DNA of 33,749 nucleotides from Dehalococcoidia bacterium (lineage in GTDB: Bacteria > Chloroflexota > Dehalococcoidia > JACVQG01 > JAZFUS01), in NCBI GenBank assembly GCA_036447315.1, contig JAZFUS010000348.1, positions 1-33,749 on the forward strand. Direction: 5' to 3'. Both the position numbers and the translations under genes were made by a program. Under the pieces are notes generated by a model that made no database searches, was not told the DNA's origin, and saw only the letters and a list, made by a program, of their open reading frames with translations. Below, piece after piece: positions 1 to 16,283 of this stretch. The first letter of the stretch is position 1, and every line of letters begins with the position of its first letter.

Positions 1-1
1 G

Positions 2-106
2 TGGTTCAACCCCTGCGGCGTCCGGACTGGCCGGATGCAGAACGGCCACCCCCGCGACAAGTACGGCAGCATCGTGATCGAGAAGGCCGAGCAGGTCGCA
101 GCGTAG
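2..106 (+). CDS. 3' end of an upstream gene, function unknown (partial at window edge)
   Basis: Frame 2 is open from the window edge to TAG 104-106 (...RDKYGSIVIEKAEQVAA*). Third codon positions are G/C-rich. It is too short for the ORF track and is followed by a GC hairpin. Confidence 0.3.
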   Translation, partial: WFNPCGVRTGRMQNGHPRDKYGSIVIEKAEQVAA

Positions 107-708: not shown

Positions 709-1172
709 TGGCCAGGAACCCCAGGGTCACCATCAAGATCGAGGGCCTGGAGCGGATGTCCAAGGCCATCCGGATGGCAGGGCCCGCCATCCACCGGGCA
801 GTCCAGGACGCCATCCGGGCAGCTGGTGCCCAGGCAGTGGCGGAGGCCACCCTGGCCGACGCCCTGGACCGGAAGGTCGAGCCCGTCGAGCTGTCCGCCG
901 AGGACGTGGCGTTCCAGCAGATCAGGGAATTCCAGGAGAACGAGATCCGGCGGCAGTGCGGGGTCCCCGAGGGGATCAGCACCCTGGCGGCGGCCATCCG
1001 GTTCAAGCCCGGCATCGGGTTCACGACGGCCTACGAGATCCTGCACGAGCTGAACCGGATGGGGGTCCTGGAGGGGATCAGCCCCAGGGACGTGGAACGC
1101 TACGACCCCAGGCAGGGGGCGGTCCTGGCCCAGCAGGGCTGCAACCTGTGCAGCCCCACCCTGGGCATCTGA
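708..1172 (+). CDS. hypothetical protein (154 aa)
   Basis: ATG 708 is coupled to the upstream stop. Only the C-terminal part of track ORF 402-1172 (MARNPRVTIKIEGLERMSKAIR...) looks like real protein. Stop is TGA 1170-1172. Confidence 0.7.
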   Translation: MARNPRVTIKIEGLERMSKAIRMAGPAIHRAVQDAIRAAGAQAVAEATLADALDRKVEPVELSAEDVAFQQIREFQENEIRRQCGVPEGISTLAAAIRFKPGIGFTTAYEILHELNRMGVLEGISPRDVERYDPRQGAVLAQQGCNLCSPTLGI

Positions 1173-1174
1173 CA

Positions 1175-1290
1175 CCAGAAAGCCCCAGGAAGCAGCCCCT
1201 GGAAATAAACGCAAATAGGCCTTGCACAATCCAGCGGGTGGGTGTAGATTATGGGTGTCATGAGGCAGCACACAACCACCACGGAGTCCA
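1175..1290 (+). promoter_or_regulatory. promoter+leader repeat, copy 1
   Basis: A-tract AAATAAACGCAAATAGGCC is followed by -35 TTGCAC 1222-1227, a 17-nt spacer and -10 TAGATT 1245-1250. The invariant TGTCATGAGGCAG lies at 1256-1268, then a CA-rich leader and SD GGAG 1283-1286. The unit aligns with the four other copies. Confidence 0.7.
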
Positions 1291-1292
1291 AA

Positions 1293-1532
1293 GTGACCAA
1301 CGCCCAAATGAAAGCCCTGATCAACGTGGCCGACCTGGCAGTCCGGAACATGCCCTCCTGCACGTCCGCCAAGGGCTGCACCCTGAACGGCACCACCGTC
1401 CGGTCCAGCACCGCCGAATGTCTACAGCGCCAGGGCCTGGTGGTCCTGTCCAACCGGGAAGGCACCGACCTGCGGGACGTGGTCCTGACGTTCAACGGCT
1501 GGGACGCGGTCTGCACCGAGCGGGGATGGTAA
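1293..1532 (+). CDS. hypothetical small protein (cargo of repeat copy 1)
   Basis: GTG 1293 lies 6 nt after SD GGAG. In-frame alternative starts are ATG 1260 (leader AUG), ATG 1251 and ATG 1308. Stop is TAA 1530-1532. Confidence 0.65.
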   Translation: MTNAQMKALINVADLAVRNMPSCTSAKGCTLNGTTVRSSTAECLQRQGLVVLSNREGTDLRDVVLTFNGWDAVCTERGW

Positions 1533-1669
1533 TGACCAAGGCGGAACGGCTGACCCGTGCCATAGACCGGATCCTGGACGACCGCTACAACCGGCGGACA
1601 GACGACCGGGACGTCTGGCTGGACGACGAGGCCTACCAGAAAGCCCCGGAACCCAGCCCCTCAAAATAA
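1532..1669 (+). CDS. hypothetical 45-aa protein
   Basis: ATG 1532 overlaps the preceding stop (TAATG). The peptide is MTKAERLTRAIDRILDDRYNRRTDDRDVWLDDEAYQKAPEPSPSK. Its last codons are encoded by the 5' part of repeat copy 2, so it may be spurious. Confidence 0.4.
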   Translation: MTKAERLTRAIDRILDDRYNRRTDDRDVWLDDEAYQKAPEPSPSK

Positions 1670-1753
1670 ACGCAAGAAGCCCTTGCACAATCCAAGGGTC
1701 CGGTGTATATTCTAGGTGTCATGAGGCAGTCAACAACAACCCCGGAGGAAAGC
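1636..1753 (+). promoter_or_regulatory. promoter+leader repeat, copy 2
   Basis: -35 TTGCAC 1683-1688, 17-nt spacer, -10 TATATT 1706-1711. Invariant TGTCATGAGGCAG follows, with its ATG at 1721. SD GGAGGA lies at 1744-1749 ahead of ATG 1754. Confidence 0.7.
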
Positions 1754-2218
1754 ATGAACACGACAACCGACCTGAACATCGAGCCCGGCGACACCCTGCT
1801 GGTGACGTTCGGCCAGGGCACCCAGCTGTTCCGCGTGACCGAGGTCAGCGGCAGGGGCAAGCCCTGGGGATTCCGCTGGAACGCAAGCCGGGGCAGCTGG
1901 CAGCCTTCCAGCCTGGGAGCCAACGACCGGCGCGTAGTCCGGAACTGTGGCAAGTGCGACGGGTTCCCCCAGGAGACCGTCAGCGGCGCGAACCCCACCA
2001 AGGCCCTCCCGGCCTGGATCCGGATCCAGACCGTCACCGCCCAGGAGCTGCGGACCCCGACCAGCTGCTGCCACCCCACCGTCACCACCGTCAGCCAGCA
2101 GGCCTGGCCCCTGGACCAGCTGTCCGGAGTGACCGCGACGGTGGCCCGCATGAACAAGCTGGAGGACAAGACCTGGAAGGCAGGACGCAAGGCCCACAGC
2201 CTGGTGGTGGGCGACTAG
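1754..2218 (+). CDS. hypothetical protein (154 aa, cargo of repeat copy 2)
   Basis: ATG 1754 lies 4 nt after GGAGGA. The in-frame leader AUG is at 1721. Stop is TAG 2216-2218, followed by a GC hairpin. Confidence 0.7.
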   Translation: MNTTTDLNIEPGDTLLVTFGQGTQLFRVTEVSGRGKPWGFRWNASRGSWQPSSLGANDRRVVRNCGKCDGFPQETVSGANPTKALPAWIRIQTVTAQELRTPTSCCHPTVTTVSQQAWPLDQLSGVTATVARMNKLEDKTWKAGRKAHSLVVGD

Positions 2219-2242
2219 CCCGACCTGGCAGCCTGGAACCTG

Positions 2243-2264
2243 GGGGGCCCCATCGGGGGCCCCT
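2243..2264 (+). terminator. GC-only stem-loop (GGGGCCCC / GGGGCCCC)
   Basis: GGGGCCCC 2244-2251 pairs with GGGGCCCC 2256-2263. It lies between the stop at 2218 and repeat copy 3. The following sequence is TCTTGCGTT, which is only weakly T-rich. Confidence 0.4.
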
Positions 2265-2272
2265 CTTGCGTT

Positions 2273-2389
2273 AAAGCCCCAGGAAACAGCCCCTTAAAAT
2301 AAACGCAAAAAGCCCTTGCACTATCAGGCCAGGGGGTGTAGATTATGGGTGTCATGAGGCAGCAAACAAACAACCACCCGGAGGACGAC
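2273..2389 (+). promoter_or_regulatory. promoter+leader repeat, copy 3
   Basis: -35 TTGCAC 2316-2321, 17-nt spacer, -10 TAGATT 2339-2344. The invariant 13-mer follows, with its ATG at 2354. SD GGAGGA lies at 2380-2385 ahead of ATG 2390. Confidence 0.7.
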
Positions 2390-3157
2390 ATGAAAAAGGG
2401 AAACATCGACTGGAACGCCGTGGCCGAGAAAGCCCAGGCCATGACCATCTGCCAGCTGACCGGAGCCATCCAGGACATCCGGGCCACCCTGCAGGACGCC
2501 GACGACCTGGACCGCACCGACGAGGGCGACCGGGGTGGCTACTACCGGGACGAGGCCAGCATCTACCATGCAGAGATCGCCCGGCGGGAGGCCGCCGGGG
2601 ACGTGATCGACTCCGACGAGCTGGTCCGGATCGAGGCCATGCGGGACTGCGACCAGGTGGACCGCCACCTGACGGCCATGTTCCAGCGTGGCAGCAGGGC
2701 CGACGAGCTGACCACCAGGCTGTCAGCGTTCAATTCCTTCCGGGAGCTGATCGAGGAGACACACAGCGGATACCGTCCCACCCTGAAGGGGACCGGGGAC
2801 AGCGTCGAGCTGGCCAACCTGTACGACTTCGCCATGGAGCTGCGGGGCGACAGCCGCCGGGCCTTCCGGGGCATCCAGGTCCAGGACAGCCACCAGGGGA
2901 AGGTGACCGCCGAGGACGTGGACTTCGTGATCGAGCAGGCCAAGACCGCCGAGGTCTGCACCTACAGCCCGAGCCTGGAGGACCTGGGGGTCCAGACCCC
3001 GGACGAGCTGATGGAGCAGGTCAGGACCGACATCGCGGACGCCGAGGGGCACCACGTTGACATCCTGGAGCTGGCCGAGAAGATCCTGGCGGCTGACACC
3101 CCCCAGGCGGCGGCCATCCTGGCCGGGCAGATCGCGGCCCTGGTCATGAACGACTGA
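2390..3157 (+). CDS. hypothetical acidic protein (255 aa, cargo of repeat copy 3)
   Basis: ATG 2390 lies 4 nt after GGAGGA. The protein is visibly D/E-rich throughout. Stop is TGA 3155-3157, followed by a GC hairpin. Confidence 0.75.
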   Translation: MKKGNIDWNAVAEKAQAMTICQLTGAIQDIRATLQDADDLDRTDEGDRGGYYRDEASIYHAEIARREAAGDVIDSDELVRIEAMRDCDQVDRHLTAMFQRGSRADELTTRLSAFNSFRELIEETHSGYRPTLKGTGDSVELANLYDFAMELRGDSRRAFRGIQVQDSHQGKVTAEDVDFVIEQAKTAEVCTYSPSLEDLGVQTPDELMEQVRTDIADAEGHHVDILELAEKILAADTPQAAAILAGQIAALVMND

Positions 3158-3166
3158 CACCCTGAC

Positions 3167-3190
3167 GGGGGGCCGGGCAGCTGGCCCCCC
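3167..3190 (+). terminator. GC-only stem-loop (GGGGGGCC / GGCCCCCC)
   Basis: GGGGGGCC 3167-3174 pairs with GGCCCCCC 3183-3190 around an 8-nt loop. It lies between the stop at 3157 and repeat copy 4. Confidence 0.4.
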
Positions 3191-3200
3191 TTCCTGCCCC

Positions 3201-3317
3201 CAGAATCCCCATGAAACAACCCCCTGAAAATAAACGCAAAAAGCCCTTGCACAATCCACGGGTCTGGTGTAGATTATGGGTGTCATGAGGCAGTCAACAA
3301 CAACCCCGGAGAAAAAC
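3201..3317 (+). promoter_or_regulatory. promoter+leader repeat, copy 4
   Basis: -35 TTGCAC 3247-3252, 17-nt spacer, -10 TAGATT 3270-3275. The invariant 13-mer follows, with its ATG at 3285. SD GGAG lies at 3308-3311 ahead of ATG 3318. Confidence 0.7.
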
Positions 3318-3713
3318 ATGAACACCGCCACCCCCGCCACCATCACCGAGATCACCAACGACTTCGTGACCGTCACCACCGAGGACGGCAAGGCCTACAA
3401 CCTGAACCACTACAACCTGCCCGGCCACCTGATCGACAACGGTGTCGGCACCCCGGTCACCCTGATCCAGGAGCCCGTGGCCCCCGGGTCCTACGGCATC
3501 ACCACCTGGGCCGAGTCCGCCAACTTCACCCTGGCCATGGACCACGCCGCCATGGTCAAGGCCATCAACGCAGCCCCCGGATACACCGCCGAGGAGTGCC
3601 GGGCCATCGAGAACGGGGCCGACTTTGACGACGACGGGAACGTGGTCGAGGCGCAGCTGGAGCGGGTGGTCGAGGACGGTGTCTGCTACCTGCGCCCCAA
3701 GGTGTCGGCATGA
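3318..3713 (+). CDS. hypothetical acidic protein (131 aa, cargo of repeat copy 4)
   Basis: ATG 3318 follows the SD. The in-frame leader AUG is at 3285. The stop overlaps the next start (ATGA 3710-3713). Confidence 0.75.
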   Translation: MNTATPATITEITNDFVTVTTEDGKAYNLNHYNLPGHLIDNGVGTPVTLIQEPVAPGSYGITTWAESANFTLAMDHAAMVKAINAAPGYTAEECRAIENGADFDDDGNVVEAQLERVVEDGVCYLRPKVSA

Positions 3714-3817
3714 CAGCGGCGGAAGCCAAGGCCTGGCGGGCCGTCTGGGAGAGCCTGCAGCCTGCCAGCGTGAAGTGGCTGCGGGCCTGCCGGTTCACCC
3801 CCACGGTGAAGTCATGA
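3710..3817 (+). CDS. hypothetical 35-aa protein
   Basis: It is not in the ORF track because it is under 60 aa. ATG 3710 and stop TGA 3815-3817 both lie in ATGA overlaps with neighbours. The peptide is MTAAEAKAWRAVWESLQPASVKWLRACRFTPTVKS and third positions are G/C-rich. Confidence 0.45.
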   Translation: MTAAEAKAWRAVWESLQPASVKWLRACRFTPTVKS

Positions 3818-4095
3818 CCGACCGGCGGCAAGCAGCCCGGCGGGCGGACCCCCTGGGGTGCCCCGGCCAGGACCGGCGGGTCGAGATCGAGCAGCGTCAG
3901 GCCGAGCGGCGGGACGTGGCCAGCCCCAAGCGTGGCCTGCTGATCCAGGCCAAGCGTCGGATGGCCCCGGCCCTGTGGGAGGACCTGGTCCAGTCCATGA
4001 GGTCCGAGGGCCAGGAGCTGACCGACCAGGACATCGACGGCATGGCCAAGGCCATGGCCGGGGACGAGCTGACCACCGAGGACCTGGGACTATGA
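3814..4095 (+). CDS. hypothetical protein (93 aa)
   Basis: ATG 3814 lies in an ATGA overlap. This is the C-terminal part of track ORF 3625-4095 (MTDRRQAARRADPLG...DELTTEDLGL). Stop is TGA 4093-4095. Confidence 0.65.
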   Translation: MTDRRQAARRADPLGCPGQDRRVEIEQRQAERRDVASPKRGLLIQAKRRMAPALWEDLVQSMRSEGQELTDQDIDGMAKAMAGDELTTEDLGL

Positions 4096-4312
4096 AGAAT
4101 CGCCACCCCCTTCGGGCCGTATCCTTCGGGCAGCGTGTTCCTGCCCGGCCTGACCGGCGAAGCCAGACCGAGCGGTCCTGGCCCAGGGGTGGCGGGGGTA
4201 TCCATCATCGGGACCGTGTAGCAGGACACCGGTGGCCGGGGCACCGTCAGGGGGCTGTATGAAGCCCGCCACCCCGGCACCTTCCAACGTCACCAAAATG
4301 GAGGACGAGGAC

Positions 4313-4948
4313 ATGACAGTCGGACAATCAATCCAGAGCTATCTACGCCGGATGGCCACCAAGGCCAGGCGGGGAGAGATCAAGGACGACCGGCAGCAGG
4401 TCCGGTGGGCCATCGGGTTCCGGGAACACCTGGGCAAGAAGTGGCGGGGCCGTCCCGTCGAGGACCTGGTGACCAGCCCCGAGGGCCACAAGCTGCTGGA
4501 GGGCTGGGTATTCCGGGACCGGCCCAAGCTGCACGGGGTGCCCCCGACCATCCAGACCGTCTGCGTCGAGAACGGCAAGCTGCGGGAGTGCTTCCAGCTG
4601 CCCGACCTGACCCTGGACTGGCAGCAGAAGGGCCGACCGTCCGACCCCCGGCCCAGGGTCATGGCCCTGTCCGAGCTGCTGCCCGGCAGCACCGGAGGCA
4701 AGGAGGTCGAGACCGTGGCCGGTTCCAACGGCACGGGGGTGGAGGACAATCGGAAGTTCTACCGGCGGAAGGGCGACCAGCCCGAGCTGCCCCTGGAGCG
4801 GCCCATCGACGTGGCCATCCTGGCCCTGTCCGAGCTGACCGCAGCTGTGGCCGGGTTCGCGGAGAACGTCCACCGGGTGGCTGGGTCCCTGCAGGACCAG
4901 GCCAAGATGGTCCAGGAACGCCTGGACCGGGAGCGGGGTGTCAGGTGA
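4313..4948 (+). CDS. hypothetical protein (about 211 aa)
   Basis: GGAGGA 4300-4305 lies 7 nt before ATG 4313. In-frame alternative starts are GTG 4232, ATG 4259 (after GGGGG) and ATG 4298. Codon bias is good and the stop overlaps the next start (GTGA). Confidence 0.75.
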   Translation: MTVGQSIQSYLRRMATKARRGEIKDDRQQVRWAIGFREHLGKKWRGRPVEDLVTSPEGHKLLEGWVFRDRPKLHGVPPTIQTVCVENGKLRECFQLPDLTLDWQQKGRPSDPRPRVMALSELLPGSTGGKEVETVAGSNGTGVEDNRKFYRRKGDQPELPLERPIDVAILALSELTAAVAGFAENVHRVAGSLQDQAKMVQERLDRERGVR

Positions 4949-5418
4949 CCGGACCAGGACGACCGTCCGAGACCATCAAGACCACCGAGGGGTTCCGGCG
5001 GCAGAGGATCAGGGAGGGCCTGCGGGTGACCGTGACAGCGGTGGCCCGCAGGCTGGGGATCCTGCCGTCCAGGGTCAGCCGGTGGGAGCATGGGATCCAC
5101 GCCCCCAGGGGTGACATGGGCGAGAAGTGGGACGCCGTCCTGGCCGACCTGACCCACGAGAAGCGGGACACCACTGCCAGGATCAAGGCCGAGCTGATCG
5201 ACCCCGAGACCCCGGCTGTGGCCATGGCCCGGATCCGGTCAGCCCTGGGCGTCAGTGCCCTGTCCATGTCCAGGATCATGGGGATCGACCATACGACCCT
5301 GTGGAGGTGGGAGACCGGCAGATACATCCCGGAGAACATCGACGCCTGGCGGGCAGCCCTGCTGGTGGTCTGCCTGGGCATCAGGCGGACGGCCATCAGA
5401 CACGGGGGTGTCCAGTGA
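4945..5418 (+). CDS. tandem helix-turn-helix (XRE-like) DNA-binding protein
   Basis: GTG 4945 lies in a GTGA overlap. Two XRE-type HTH signatures are present: LRVTVTAVARRLGILPSRVSRWEHG and LGVSALSMSRIMGIDHTTLWRWETGRYIP. The N-terminal part of track ORF 4405-5418 is low-complexity and overlaps the previous gene. Confidence 0.75.
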   Translation: MTGPGRPSETIKTTEGFRRQRIREGLRVTVTAVARRLGILPSRVSRWEHGIHAPRGDMGEKWDAVLADLTHEKRDTTARIKAELIDPETPAVAMARIRSALGVSALSMSRIMGIDHTTLWRWETGRYIPENIDAWRAALLVVCLGIRRTAIRHGGVQ

Positions 5419-12211: not shown

Positions 12212-12631
12212 ATGGAGGCCAGGATCGAGCGCCAGGAGTCCACGGGCTGCTGGCTGTGGACCGGGGGCGTCACCACAGGAGGGTATTCCGTGTCCTGTGG
12301 TGGGCTGGCCATCCAGTTAGCCCACCGGGTCATGTACGCGATTTTACTGGGGGACACCGAGCTGCGCCTGGTTCACCTGTGCGGTGTCTCGCTGTGCGTG
12401 AACCCCGACCACATGGAGGCGGTCACGATGGGGGAGATTATAAAACGTGGGCAGACCCCGCCAGCCAGGCACAGCAGAAAGACCTGGTGCAACAACGGCC
12501 ACGAGTTCACAGAGGACAATACCCGTAGAATCAAGGGGCACAGGGTCTGCAAGCGGTGCAAACTGGACCAGAGCAGGACGCCCAAGACCAAAGCCAGGCA
12601 AGCGGCTTACAGGCTGTCCCGCCGGGGGTAG
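12212..12631 (+). CDS. HNH homing-type endonuclease (HNH_3-like)
   Basis: The pattern is GCWLWTGGVTTGGY...LAHRVMY...VHLCGVSLCVNPDHMEAVT. ATG 12212 is my preferred start and GTG 12182 is the alternative. Local patches of lower GC occur. It lies between terS and terL. Confidence 0.8.
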   Translation: MEARIERQESTGCWLWTGGVTTGGYSVSCGGLAIQLAHRVMYAILLGDTELRLVHLCGVSLCVNPDHMEAVTMGEIIKRGQTPPARHSRKTWCNNGHEFTEDNTRRIKGHRVCKRCKLDQSRTPKTKARQAAYRLSRRG

Positions 12632-12636
12632 CGGCT

Positions 12637-14352
12637 GTGGTCAGCAAGGCAAAAACAAAGACAGTCCGGGCCACCAGGAAGTCCAAAAGTAGACACCCCA
12701 ACCCGGCCATCAGATACCACCGGGATGTCCTGAACGGGCTGGTGGTGGTGGGGGACCTGGTCCGCCTGGCCGTCGAGCGGCACGAGCGGGACCTGCGGGA
12801 CGGGCACAAGCGGGGCCTGCGGTTCTCCGAGCCCCTGGCCCAACATGCCCAGGACTTCTACCAGGTCTGCAGGCACAGCAAGGGGGAATGGGCCGGGCAG
12901 CCGTTCTCCCCGGCACCGTGGCAGGCCTGGATCGACTGGGTCCTGTTCGGGTGGGTGGTGGCAGAGAGCGGCATCCGGCGGTTCAGCACCGGGTTCGTGA
13001 CCGTGGCCCGCAAGAACGGGAAATCCACCGACGCGGCCAAGAAGGGCCTGTATCTGATGGGCCCGGACGGGGAGCCTGGGGCCGAGATATACACCGCAGC
13101 CACCAAGCGGGACCAGGCCAGGATTGTCCACAGCGAGGCCACCAGGATGGTCCAGGCCAGCCCCGAGCTGTCCAGCGTCATCGACGTCTGGAAGGACAAC
13201 CTGTCCATCCCCAGCATGGCCTGCAAGTACGAGCCCCTGGGGAAGGACGCCGACACCCACGACGGGCTGAACCCCCACGCCGTGATCATGGACGAGCTTC
13301 ACGCCCACAAGACCAGGGACCAGTACGACGTCCTGCGGACAGGGATGGGGGCCCGGCGGCAGCCCCTGATGTACATCATCACCACGGCAGGGGCGAACAG
13401 GACCAGCATCTGCTACGAGCTGGACAACTACAGCCAGCAGGTGGTCCGGGGGGTCCTTCAGGACGACAGCTGGTTCTGCTACCTGGCCAGGCCCGACGAG
13501 GGCGACGACTGGCGGGACATGGCCACCTGGAAAAAGGGCAACCCCAACCTGGGGGTGTCCGTGAAGCTGCGGAACCTGAAGCGGGACTTCAGGGAGGCCA
13601 CCGAGTCCCTGGCCTGCCAGAACACATTTCGACGCCTGCGCCTGAACGAATGGACCCAGCAGGTGGACCGGGTGATCGACATGGACAAGTGGGCGGCCTG
13701 CAGCGGGAAGCCCGAGATCCCCGACAACGCGGTCTGCTTCCTGGGGCTGGACCTGTCAGCCAAGATCGACCTGACGGCAGGGGTCTGCCTGCATGTTGAC
13801 GACGACGGGCTGATCCACGTCGAGGTCCAGTTCTGGATGCCCGAGGAGTCAGTGATCAGCAAGACCAGGCGGGACCGGGTGCCCTACGACGTCTGGGTCC
13901 GGGAGGGCTACATCACGGCCACCCCGGGGAACGTGGTGGACCAGGAGTCCGTCAGGATCTGGGTCAACGGGCGGAAGGCTGCGGGGCGGTACATCGAGCA
14001 GGTGGCGTATGACCCGTGGAACGCCACCAAGCTGGCCGTCGAGCTGCAGGACGTGGACGGGCACGTCACCGTCGAGGTCCGCCAGGGCTACAAGTCCATG
14101 TCCGAGCCCACCAAAACCCTGATCGGGGCAGTCCTGGACAAGCGGATCCGGCACGGGGGCAACCCAGTCCTGTCCTGGATGGCCGACAACTTCGAAGTCA
14201 GGCGGGACGAGAACGACAACATGGCCCCCAGGAAGGGGTCCGAGGTCTCGCGCATCGACGGCATGGTGGCCCTGATCATGGCCCTGGGGCGGGCCGAGCT
14301 GCACGAAGGACCCAGCCCATACGAGTCCAGGGGCCTGCTGTCCATCGGCTGA
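12637..14352 (+). CDS. terL: terminase large subunit (Terminase_1-like)
   Basis: Walker A-like VARKNGKST is followed by ...IMDELHAH... (Walker B-like) and a C-terminal nuclease region. GTG 12637 follows the HNH stop. ATG 12556 is an alternative but overlaps HNH by 76 nt. Stop is TGA 14350-14352. Confidence 0.9.
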   Translation: MVSKAKTKTVRATRKSKSRHPNPAIRYHRDVLNGLVVVGDLVRLAVERHERDLRDGHKRGLRFSEPLAQHAQDFYQVCRHSKGEWAGQPFSPAPWQAWIDWVLFGWVVAESGIRRFSTGFVTVARKNGKSTDAAKKGLYLMGPDGEPGAEIYTAATKRDQARIVHSEATRMVQASPELSSVIDVWKDNLSIPSMACKYEPLGKDADTHDGLNPHAVIMDELHAHKTRDQYDVLRTGMGARRQPLMYIITTAGANRTSICYELDNYSQQVVRGVLQDDSWFCYLARPDEGDDWRDMATWKKGNPNLGVSVKLRNLKRDFREATESLACQNTFRRLRLNEWTQQVDRVIDMDKWAACSGKPEIPDNAVCFLGLDLSAKIDLTAGVCLHVDDDGLIHVEVQFWMPEESVISKTRRDRVPYDVWVREGYITATPGNVVDQESVRIWVNGRKAAGRYIEQVAYDPWNATKLAVELQDVDGHVTVEVRQGYKSMSEPTKTLIGAVLDKRIRHGGNPVLSWMADNFEVRRDENDNMAPRKGSEVSRIDGMVALIMALGRAELHEGPSPYESRGLLSIG

Positions 14353-14446
14353 AAATAAAACGCAAAAAGGACTTGCGCTATCCTGCCGAGGGGGGTATAT
14401 TAGAGCTGTCATGAGGCAGCAAACAACAACCCCGGAGGACAGGAAC
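14351..14446 (+). promoter_or_regulatory. promoter+leader repeat, copy 5
   Basis: AAAATAAAACGCAAAAAGG is followed by -35 TTGCGC 14373-14378, a 17-nt spacer and -10 TATATT 14396-14401. TGTCATGAGGCAG follows, with its ATG at 14411. SD GGAGGA lies at 14434-14439 ahead of ATG 14447. Confidence 0.65.
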
Positions 14447-14806
14447 ATGACCCGACTTGAAATGATCGCTCGCATCGACTTCCTGGTGGCCCGCGAGGAT
14501 AATCCCAGCGAGGGCATGGTCGCTTCCATGAGCCGCGAAGCAGACGCCGAGGAGTGCCTGGCCCTGGAGGAGGACGTGGACCGCCTGGACGCCGAGCAGG
14601 CGGAAGTGGCCCACGAGGCGGAAATGATCGACCTGGCCGACAATTACCCCACCCTGGACGACGTCGAGGGGAAGCTGCAGGACGCCGTTCGACCCCAGCC
14701 CGGGACGTTCGCGGACACGGCCCGCCTGATGGTCCAGCTGGGCGTAATGACCGGCGACGAGGCCGACACCTGGAAGGACGACATGAAGGACGGCCTGCTG
14801 TTCTAA
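14447..14806 (+). CDS. hypothetical highly acidic protein (119 aa, cargo of repeat copy 5)
   Basis: ATG 14447 lies 7 nt after GGAGGA. My hand count gives about 31 D/E against 10 K/R. Stop is TAA 14804-14806, followed by a GC hairpin. Confidence 0.75.
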   Translation: MTRLEMIARIDFLVAREDNPSEGMVASMSREADAEECLALEEDVDRLDAEQAEVAHEAEMIDLADNYPTLDDVEGKLQDAVRPQPGTFADTARLMVQLGVMTGDEADTWKDDMKDGLLF

Positions 14807-14840: not shown

Positions 14841-16283
14841 ATGGACACCGCAGGATATTGCGGTATACTCCGGAACATGCAGCTGAATTTGGCCCACAAC
14901 GCCAAGGTCCTGCTGGGCATGGTCCAGGGCATTATGGGCGGCGGCGGGAAAACAAAGGGCGTTCTGACCACGTCCGACTTCCCCGGCATGACCTTCAGCA
15001 CCTGGGCCGGGCCTGTGATCCTGGCCACCAACGCCCACAAGATCGCAGCCGTCAAGTGTGCCGTCAGGATCCTGTCCGAAACCATGCTGTCAGCATCCTG
15101 GCAGCTGAAGATCAAGAAGGGCCAGGGTGGCAGGGACTCCGAGGAGGTCACCACCCACCCCAGCAGCATCCTGACCAGGCAGGCCAACGACCTGATGGAC
15201 GACGGGGTGTTCCGGGAGACCGGGACCGCCATCATGACTCTGTGGGGGAACTTCCACGCCAAGATCGAGCGGGACCGGCTGGGGAACGCCATCCAGCTGT
15301 GGCCCTACCCCGGCGGCCAGGTGATCCCCAAGGAAATCATCAGCGGGCCCACCGGGAAGGTCCTGATCTACAGGACCACCGACCACCTGGGCAAGATGGA
15401 GGACGTCCCGTCCACAGAGATGTTCTCAATCCACGGCCTGGGGTTCGACGGGATCCAGGGCCGGTCCATGATCGAGGACCACCGGGAGACCCTGGGCCTG
15501 GCAGTCAGCATGGAGCAGCACCAGGCCACCATGATGGGGAAGGGCGCAGCCCCGGCTGGTGTCCTGGAAACGGACGGCAGGCTGAAGGACGCCAGCGTCA
15601 TGAAGCGGCTGGTGGACAGCTGGGAGGCCACCTACGGCGGGGCCAGGAACGCGGGGAAGGTCGCCGTCCTGGAGGACGGCCTGAAGTACAAGCCCGTCAC
15701 CGTCCCCGCCAAGGACATCCAGTTCCTGGAGTCCAGGAAGTTCCTGCTGGCAGAGGTCGCCAGGATCTTCAGGATCCCCCTGCACATGCTGGAGGAAATG
15801 GACCGGGCCACGTTCAACAACGTGGAACACCGCAGCCTGGAGTTCCTGCTGTACACCATGGTCCCCCACGTCACCAAATGGAAAAAAGAGTGTGCCAGGA
15901 AGCTGGTCAACAAGCACGACCGGGAGGGGCTGTTCTGGGACTTTGACCTGTCCTGGCTGCTCCGAGGTGACCGCAAGACCTTCCACGCGGCCCTGGCCAT
16001 CGGACGCCAGTGGGGCTGGCTGTCAGCCAACGACTGCAGGACGGCCCTGGGCATGAACGGAATAGGACCGGACGGGGACATCTACCTGCAGCCCGGCAAT
16101 ATGATCGTGGCCGGGGACGAGATCGACCCCGCAGCCACCAGCCTGATGGACGACGAGGACGGGGACGGGGAGTCCACCGGGCCCCCAGAAAAAGAGGACA
16201 CCGAGGACGGGGAAAAAGCCAGGGAGTTCAACAACGCCCGGCAGACCCTGCGCCTGATCACGTCGAGGAGGGAGGTAGCGTAA
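14841..16283 (+). CDS. portal protein, HK97 family
   Basis: The ORF codes 480 aa in the canonical position after terL, with an acidic C-terminal tail. In-frame alternative starts are ATG 14877 and ATG 14919. The stop overlaps the protease start (TAATG). Confidence 0.9.
   Translation: MDTAGYCGILRNMQLNLAHNAKVLLGMVQGIMGGGGKTKGVLTTSDFPGMTFSTWAGPVILATNAHKIAAVKCAVRILSETMLSASWQLKIKKGQGGRDSEEVTTHPSSILTRQANDLMDDGVFRETGTAIMTLWGNFHAKIERDRLGNAIQLWPYPGGQVIPKEIISGPTGKVLIYRTTDHLGKMEDVPSTEMFSIHGLGFDGIQGRSMIEDHRETLGLAVSMEQHQATMMGKGAAPAGVLETDGRLKDASVMKRLVDSWEATYGGARNAGKVAVLEDGLKYKPVTVPAKDIQFLESRKFLLAEVARIFRIPLHMLEEMDRATFNNVEHRSLEFLLYTMVPHVTKWKKECARKLVNKHDREGLFWDFDLSWLLRGDRKTFHAALAIGRQWGWLSANDCRTALGMNGIGPDGDIYLQPGNMIVAGDEIDPAATSLMDDEDGDGESTGPPEKEDTEDGEKAREFNNARQTLRLITSRREVA

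Follow-up and report, generated by a model that had tools for sequence, protein, structure and literature searches.

The window analysed here is a stretch of 33,749 nt that makes up the whole of a 33.7-kb contig (C348) of a 2.1-Mb, 374-contig metagenome-assembled genome (MAG) of a Dehalococcoidia bacterium, and its content is that of a piece of a tailed-phage genome. A 133-nt repeat is present in five copies, each of which places a promoter-like sequence, an invariant 13-mer containing an ATG (here called the tag), a leader and a Shine–Dalgarno (SD) sequence before the start codon of a gene (here called the cargo). An initial annotation had proposed that the AUG of the tag is kept in frame with every cargo and permits two isoforms of each. 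We find that the tag has an exact antisense copy at the tip of a predicted hairpin, conserved in a related phage, and we favour, at a probability of about 0.5, the reading that the AUG belongs to a 5′ RNA tag that the transcripts share and that has an antisense partner, and that frame retention is mostly inherited. The tag together with its conserved antisense partner is the new finding of this analysis.

Comparison with described systems

Antisense control is known from the c4 RNA of phages P1 and P7 and from the pairing of the 3′ and 5′ untranslated regions (UTRs) of Staphylococcus aureus icaR. Paired in-frame starts are known from phage lambda, in which the S105 and S107 starts lie two codons apart, are both SD-dependent and give antagonistic products. 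As in lambda, two in-frame starts could give two N-terminal forms of each cargo, but here the starts are 10–12 codons apart, would use different modes of initiation and would place the same extension before unrelated cargo.

The P4 CI RNA, with its seqA and seqC sites, is a hairpin RNA of the same transcription unit that is complementary to repeated sites in the transcript (summarized in PMC4825925). The phage locus resembles this system in that a 13-nt exact complement lies at a hairpin tip, in a loop predicted to be unpaired, and is conserved in the relative L052. It differs in having eight putative targets at the predicted extreme 5′ ends of separate promoter-driven mRNAs, and the phage hairpin has no sequence or Rfam relationship with CI RNA.

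In the promoter-early stem-loop (PeSL) cassettes of T4-like phages, short repeated terminator/promoter motifs flank small ORFans as recombination points (PMC2839356, PMC4122927). Similar shuffling is seen here, with eight repeats before mostly ORFan cargo and with homologous cargo that has other neighbours or is fused in the relatives L052 and L053. The sequences and the host lineage are nevertheless unrelated; the phage unit adds a 5′ tag, an A/C leader, an SD sequence and a start, and a stem–loop lies upstream of some phage copies rather than all.

The start-associated sequences (SAS) of Cluster K mycobacteriophages and the stoperators of mycobacteriophage L5 are likewise 13-bp repeats without symmetry; they lie in the non-structural half of the genome, almost all in one orientation (PMC3203893). 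In several Cluster K genomes one SAS is reversed, and an RNA or a protein has been suggested as the binding partner of SAS (PMC3203893). An SAS contains the SD sequence and lies 3–7 bp before the start, whereas the phage tag lies 30–44 nt upstream of it, after a promoter, and contains an ATG; the position relative to SD sequence and start that defines an SAS is thus not that of the tag.

For the dual-initiation idea, the nearest described kind by analogy appears to be the E. coli mRNAs with an AUG at the 5′ end (5′-uAUG mRNAs), in which 70S ribosomes bind to these AUGs and translation from them can occur (Beck, Fleming and Janssen 2016; PMC4965119). All 11 copies known here share with them an AUG near the predicted 5′ end and a normal SD sequence and start downstream. 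Unlike theirs, the phage 5′ end is a prediction, which puts it some 3 nt upstream of the AUG, whereas the E. coli AUGs lie at the end or within about 2 nt of it; the phage AUG also lies within a 13-nt block at eight promoters, and the E. coli study chose out-of-frame cases.

The repeat unit and its copies

The tag, TGTCATGAGGCAG, is found exactly five times in the window, always on the + strand. From its upstream end, the unit consists of an A-tract (AAATAAAC), TTGCAC or TTGCGC, a variable spacer of 17 bp, TA(G/T/A)ATT, 5 variable nt, the tag, a spacer of A and C only, GGAG, 6 or 9 nt and then ATG-A (GTG in copy 1). The five window copies are as follows.

Window 1222–1295, + strand: copy 1; TTGCAC 1222–1227, TAGATT 1245–1250, tag 1256–1268, tag ATG 1260–1262, A/C leader 1269–1282, GGAG 1283–1286, GTG start 1293–1295; 33 nt from tag ATG to start, in frame
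Window 1683–1756, + strand: copy 2; TTGCAC 1683–1688, TATATT 1706–1711, tag 1717–1729, tag ATG 1721–1723, GGAG 1744–1747, ATG start 1754–1756; 33 nt, in frame
Window 2316–2392, + strand: copy 3; TTGCAC 2316–2321, TAGATT 2339–2344, tag 2350–2362, tag ATG 2354–2356, 17-nt A/C leader, GGAG 2380–2383, ATG start 2390–2392; 36 nt, in frame
Window 3247–3320, + strand: copy 4; TTGCAC 3247–3252, TAGATT 3270–3275, tag 3281–3293, tag ATG 3285–3287, GGAG 3308–3311, ATG start 3318–3320; 33 nt, in frame
Window 14373–14449, + strand: copy 5, between TerL and portal; TTGCGC 14373–14378, TATATT 14396–14401, tag 14407–14419, tag ATG 14411–14413, GGAG 14434–14437, 9-nt spacer, ATG start 14447–14449; 36 nt, in frame

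The in-frame spacings of the initial annotation (33, 33, 36, 33 and 36 nt, with no intervening stop) were reproduced from the sequence, and its extension peptides were matched: MRQHTTTTESK, MRQSTTTPEES, MRQQTNNHPEDD, MRQSTTTPEKN and MRQQTTTPEDRN for copies 1–5. Its placing of the ATG at the 10th nt after the -10 hexamer, which is TAGATT or TATATT in the window, was likewise confirmed. The start of copy 4 given by the gene caller of the protein database is also 3318 (131 aa).

The array of cassettes extends upstream of the window into a second contig of the same assembly, C171 (6.8 kb), whose reverse-complement end overlaps window 1–75 over about 75 nt with 3 mismatches. A reading frame crosses this join, and with the overlap of about 75 nt this places C171 directly upstream, in this phage or a near-identical strain. 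As judged from the contig ends, the phage is C171 in reverse complement plus C348, about 40.5 kb, and the break between the two in the assembly is probably due to strain variation. The junction and the three further copies, which share the orientation of the window copies, are listed here.

C171 1–75, minus strand: overlap with window 1–75, contig junction
Window 1–106, + strand: 3′ end of the cargo gene of the eighth copy; the frame runs from reverse-complemented C171 to a stop at about 104–106
C171, tag ATG at 306, minus strand: 36 nt to the start, in frame; cargo ends in window 1–106
C171, tag ATG at 3024: 30 nt, in frame; cargo a 56-aa protein, then a 781-aa protein
C171, tag ATG at 4818: 44 nt, out of frame; cargo a 513-aa AAA+ ATPase

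All eight promoter-like sites of the phage carry the tag, and within the 2.1-Mb assembly the 12-mer is restricted to C348 and C171. Including three copies from relatives (below), the -35 and -10 assignments rest on 11 copies with conserved hexamers, fixed 17-bp spacing and variable spacer sequence; a strict sigma-70 scan scored copy 2 only. GGAG or GAGG lies 5–9 nt before ATG or GTG in each of the 11. The invariant block comprises 12–13 nt, TGTCATGAGGCA(G), and starts one base before the predicted transcription start, while the 5 nt between it and the -10 hexamer vary.

Two sets of minor observations concern the starts. The SD-led start is followed by A in 10 of the 11 copies, with nine in the context C-ATG-A; pairing of the tag (5′ UCAUG(A)) with CAUGA at the SD-led start was considered and rejected as too weak, at 5–6 bp and -2.6 to -5.6 kcal/mol. 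An extra ATG (ATTATGGGTGTCATG) is present at window 1251, 2345 and 3276 and at C171 315, 9 nt upstream of the tag ATG and in frame with it. Open reading frame (ORF) finders extend genes to this ATG, which is probably untranscribed, as it lies between the -10 hexamer and the predicted start.

Copies in related phages

Metagenome contigs were scanned for the -10 hexamer plus tag, which gave 10 matches, of which seven were chance matches in low-GC DNA and three were true relatives. The relatives (SDBT01; L052, L053 and L057) encode proteins 45–79 % identical to those of this phage. Despite this divergence the tag, the -35 and the -10 are unchanged in them, and their leaders of 36, 33 and 33 nt are all in frame. 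The tag AUG is therefore present in 11/11 known copies (eight from this phage and three from relatives), and 10/11 have two in-frame starts without an intervening stop, C171 4818 being out of frame.

One leader variant, AGGCAGTCAACAACAACCCCGGAG, is identical in both phages, at window 1721 and 3285, at C171 306 and in L053 and L057. In L053, a single ORF encodes the 56-aa cargo together with a domain whose homologue is the C-terminal half of window cargo 3, and this fusion is direct evidence of module shuffling between cassettes. A homologue of cargo 4 follows the ATPase in L052, with a leader of 36 nt.

L053 502–1297, reverse strand: fused ORF, corresponding to C171 2827–2994 and window 2390–3157

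A conserved antisense copy of the tag

The exact reverse complement of the tag, CTGCCTCATGACA, is found once in the phage and once in L052. By calculation, a particular 13-mer would be expected about 6e-4 times by chance on a single strand of 40 kb. In C171 the stop codon of the AAA+ ATPase gene precedes the anti-tag by 37 nt, and the next tag follows about 155 nt later; in L052 it likewise follows the ATPase homologue, about 147 nt before the tag of that contig. Both phages have a long hairpin at this position and then a G+C hairpin, with a U-tract in C171.

C171 3125–3235, minus strand (locus L064): hairpin plus terminator after the AAA+ ATPase gene, anti-tag at the tip
C171 3183–3195, gene-sense (transcribed) strand: anti-tag
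L052 243–352: hairpin plus terminator after the ATPase homologue, anti-tag at the tip
L052 281–293: anti-tag

The predicted folds have a dG of -73.5 kcal/mol in C171 and -67.8 kcal/mol in L052 (z -4.4 and -3.4, respectively), and the loop CAUGACA is predicted to be unpaired with a probability of 0.78–1.0. As read from the two folds, four pairs of the outer stem differ between the phages with pairing kept, two of these being double compensatory changes and two G-C/G-U exchanges. The RNAalifold result for the two hairpins, aligned with MAFFT, had the 3′ arm misaligned and was set aside. Long-range duplexfold energies were no better than those of shuffled sequences, and the plain 13-nt complementarity was kept instead. 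An Rfam search found no family for the hairpin element, which on the basis of these folds is a candidate either for a separate RNA of about 110 nt or for a 3′ UTR element. A TGnTAAnAT motif resembling an extended -10 overlies the ATPase stop codon and is conserved in both phages. Judged by its sequence, this motif could supply the hairpin element with its own promoter; the element would be transcribed anyway as the 3′ UTR of the ATPase mRNA.

Under the favoured reading, the AUG would be invariant as a member of a 12–13-nt tag at about the predicted transcription start of an early-promoter unit, and we infer that all eight early-cassette mRNAs carry the tag at their 5′ end as a shared RNA address. 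The ATPase mRNA could pair with the cassette mRNAs through its 3′ UTR and cover the AUG, or an RNA of about 110 nt that is cleaved or transcribed from this region could do so. Such pairing might take place on the eight mRNAs in trans, within the ATPase mRNA in cis, where the two ends match at 12/13 nt, or at the terminator–promoter junction of read-through transcripts, and its effect might be shut-off, stabilization or termination. More tentatively, and with the balance of probability against it, one conserved hairpin RNA could pair through its apical loop with the eight mRNA tags and thereby switch, stabilize or shut off all of the early ORFan genes at once, gating leaderless-type initiation. 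If true, a common 5′ tag with an antisense partner would let a single RNA control the early genes of a phage globally, and this in a lineage without cultured relatives.

A DNA-level explanation of the same pattern was also weighed, in which a phage regulator such as the HTH_3 protein uses the tag as an operator at +1; the ATG would then have no role of its own, and the reversed copy would count as a ninth site. This would account for a 13-bp asymmetric sequence at a fixed position in each promoter; an Xre/Cro-type HTH gene adjoins the cassette array, and the L5 stoperators and SAS, 13-bp asymmetric repeats mostly in one orientation with a single reversed SAS in Cluster K (PMC3203893), offer a precedent. 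A DNA site, however, needs neither an RNA hairpin with compensatory changes nor a placement at a hairpin tip before a terminator, and HTH_3 dimers usually bind palindromes, of which the tag contains only TCATGA. We consider an operator of this kind unlikely, though a serious alternative.

Frame retention in the leaders

The alignment of the leaders, several of which are near-identical, indicated about four independent length changes. The two seen by the initial annotation, both of 3 nt at different places, were confirmed, and the full set is as follows.

+3: CA tract, copy 3
+3: after the SD sequence, common to copy 5, C171-306 and L052
-3: C171-3024
+11: C171-4818

Three of the four changes are multiples of three, for which the binomial P is about 0.11 at p = 1/3, so the evidence that the frame gives for selection is weak. 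The leaders contain 0–1 T in 27–41 nt; even at the composition of the window (T = 0.138) a 10-codon stretch would be open about 78 % of the time by calculation. As the leaders are nearly free of T, the open frame is uninformative, and the absence of intervening stops, although true of the window copies as the initial annotation had said, carries little weight.

The shared sequence continues past the SD-led ATG, through the first 19 or so coding nt in L053 and L057, which have unrelated cargo, and through the first 8 in copies 2 and 4. Both ATGs therefore lie inside the repeated unit and their frame relation is copied along with it. A unit that is copied or recombined before new cargo would carry the frame relation of both ATGs, and triplet-like A/C repeats (ACA, ACC, AAC and GAC) would favour slips of 3 nt. 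Frame retention would then be mostly inheritance, to which selection against an out-of-frame upstream ORF (uORF) over the true start may contribute. Shared ancestry of the repeats, which the initial annotation had itself offered as the alternative to a selected frame, is thus the better fit, given that the unit includes both ATGs.

Variable columns of the leader were spread over codon positions 1, 2 and 3 alike with no third-position bias, and the leader peptides differ non-synonymously, for example RQSTTTPEKN compared with RQNKNTPEDQN before orthologous cargo. The pooled GC content of the leaders by codon position was 0.42/0.53/0.75, compared with a third-position GC of 0.82–1.0 in the first 50 cargo codons. 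From their sequence, this faint periodicity appears attributable to the repeats plus the fixed AGGCAG and CCGGAG blocks.

The statement that every copy is in frame holds for the five window copies and fails for the full phage, in which C171 4818, at 44 nt, is out of frame. Its ATG opens a uORF of 23 codons that overlaps the SD-led ATPase start by 28 nt. The initial annotation had suggested that related leaders be compared for indels in multiples of three and for a bias towards synonymous changes, and the outcome of that comparison was divided: the three relatives were in frame, while a paralogous copy broke the frame and there was no third-position bias. C171 4818 is in spirit the kind of frame-breaking leader that it had named as contrary evidence, although as a paralogue and not from another phage.

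These data also bear on the possibility that the AUG recruits ribosomes near the 5′ end, like that of E. coli ptrB, or is merely tolerated, with the frame kept to avoid a uORF that would depress the cargo and with any extended protein a harmless by-product. In its favour, the frame is kept without conservation of the peptide, and the out-of-frame copy stands before a gene of another type, the AAA+ ATPase that opens the array, at which the uORF with its 28-nt overlap could be regulatory. In E. coli, 5′-uAUGs do affect downstream expression (PMC4965119; ptrB work cited in PMC9031893). Ribosome binding by the phage AUG is putative, however, and the 12–13-nt invariance and the conserved antisense copy would be left unexplained. 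This account is improbable.

Among the sequencing runs listed as containing the stretch there was no RNA run. Strain variation was available from three marine DNA runs as low-depth fragments (Logan contigs) that are 90–97 % alike, and leaders 1 and 2 had no indel in these contigs. In one low-depth contig, the variant G1293A changes the start of cargo 1 from GTG to ATG, with no indel in 1254–1354, which is consistent with 1293 as a start codon. The same variant has 1287 T>A, by which leader 1 loses its only T. A 259-nt contig over copy 2 has 22 differences; those listed fall at 1701 and at or beyond 1761, and none of them in 1702–1760.

Translation initiation at the tag AUG

E. coli RNA polymerase favours starts 7–8 nt downstream of the -10 hexamer, at a purine. 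Here the 7th nt after the hexamer is a G preceded by T and the A of the AUG is the 10th, and with this predicted start the mRNA likely begins GUCAUG, 3 nt before the AUG. A predicted leader of about 3 nt weakens the case for leaderless initiation. In Caulobacter, each added leader nt cuts leaderless initiation about 2-fold, and in E. coli one added nt is already reported to be inhibitory (PMC8459731). By analogy, on the Caulobacter fit, a 3-nt leader would reduce leaderless initiation to roughly a sixth. The SD-led start lies 30–44 nt downstream in all copies and transcription is not predicted to begin at the A of the ATG, which sets these transcripts apart from leaderless mRNAs as defined.

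The MAG, the presumed host, was used to assess initiation in the host. Among 1,340 long ORFs, GGAG/GAGG peaked 5–10 nt before the first start, and TANNNT gave no peak at the distance expected of leaderless genes. The host would therefore be SD-led, if the MAG is the host. ACA motifs or CA-rich leaders before an SD sequence are translation enhancers (PMC3879156, PMC9031893), and a leader of A and C only, which cannot self-pair and has an enhancer-like composition, is the simpler reading of this tract.

The original proposal was that transcription starts 0–4 nt before the tag AUG and that leaderless-type and SD-led initiation together give two isoforms, with the frame selected. It draws on an AUG that is invariant in 11/11 copies and in frame in 10/11, on length changes of +3, +3 and -3 at different sites, on the CA-rich tract downstream (PMC9031893), on a GC content that peaks at third codon positions when read in the AUG frame and on E. 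coli 5′-uAUGs 0–2 nt from the end, which are translated and of which in-frame cases could give longer isoforms (PMC4965119). Set against this are the out-of-frame C171 4818 and a P of only about 0.11, extension peptides that vary non-synonymously as low-complexity by-products of A/C repeats, the predicted 3-nt leader (PMC8459731), the SD-dominated binned MAG, an invariance that reaches 9 nt beyond the AUG and the mirroring of the whole block by an antisense copy. The position of the AUG near the predicted 5′ end and, within the window, its frame stand as described, and selection for two isoforms appears quite unlikely. Low-level initiation at the tag AUG, giving an MRQ-extended cargo, is plausible and a major second isoform is not; dual isoforms for each cargo are possible but unsupported by the sequences, and probably minor. 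If the in-frame AUG is used, a second mode of initiation would place the same short extension on unrelated early proteins, and the phage would have a compact means of producing each host-takeover protein in two forms.

Several considerations weigh against the shared tag with an antisense partner and mostly inherited frame. The antisense idea consists of two sequences and their predicted folds, and an inverted cassette might have left the reversed copy as a relic, or that copy might be a ninth site bound by a protein. The link of the phage to the MAG as host is presumed. The transcription start is only predicted, and a polymerase start at the A would make the mRNA truly leaderless. In E. coli, 5′-uAUGs 1–2 nt from the end are translated (PMC4965119), and CA repeats after an AUG, such as the CA-rich tract that directly follows the tag AUG, are reported to enhance both leaderless and leadered initiation (PMC9031893). 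Read in the frame of the AUG, the leaders have their highest GC content at third codon positions (0.75), which is faintly coding-like, and 10/11 copies in frame with three 3-nt indels at separate sites exceeds a chance bet, although four events neither prove nor exclude selection on the frame. On balance, the ordinary reading of the frame fits better than the dual-isoform reading, and the tag and anti-tag are a more testable finding than use of the in-frame AUG. For annotation, the SD-led starts are to stay as the gene starts.

Database searches

Searches of GenBank phages by megablast, blastn and tblastn found no close relatives. IMG/VR was searched with the DNA pattern and with TerL, ERF, the RusA-region protein, the AAA+ ATPase and the 781-aa protein, and no close relative was found; the sole match was the TerL of L017, at 47 %, which is without such a repeat. 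No close relative was found among about 400 genomes of the phylum searched by pattern, about 400 genomes of the class searched by protein and 7 genomes of the order. A promoter-only pattern found nothing in metagenome contigs, and a pattern scan of GTDB genomes gave only chance matches in low-GC genomes. In the protein database, ERF has one homologue, at 48 %, and no homologue of cargo 4 was found in its length band. A second assembly of this phage, of 34,001 nt, is among the contigs behind database proteins.

Genomic setting of the cassettes

The early array has seven promoters in about 8.5 kb, and one more lies between TerL and portal. The other features of the window are listed here.

Window about 4950–5418: HTH_3 (Xre/Cro-type) domain, in the frame of ORF 4405–5418, residues 201–242, just before ERF
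Window about 5.1–7.3 kb: ERF-type annealing protein and exonuclease
Window: HNH endonuclease
Window 12556–14352: TerL
Window 14841–16283: portal-like gene
Window: capsid-like gene

The HTH_3 protein is a candidate regulator of the cassette promoters. G+C hairpins lie upstream of copies 3 and 4 and of C171 3024. Before copy 2 no hairpin was evident, and the stop codon of the upstream gene falls in the A-tract; a simple terminator scan of the + strand over 1100–4400 found none.

In most copies a second conserved block, approximately AG(T/C)CCCCAG(G/A)AA(A/G)CAGC(A/C)C, precedes the tag by about 55–75 nt and lies upstream of the A-tract. An activator site is one possible role for this block and a piece of the recombining unit another; its positions are as follows.

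Window 1185–1205, 1646–1666, 2279–2299 and 3210–3230: second conserved block
C171 and L052/L053/L057: equivalents of the second conserved block

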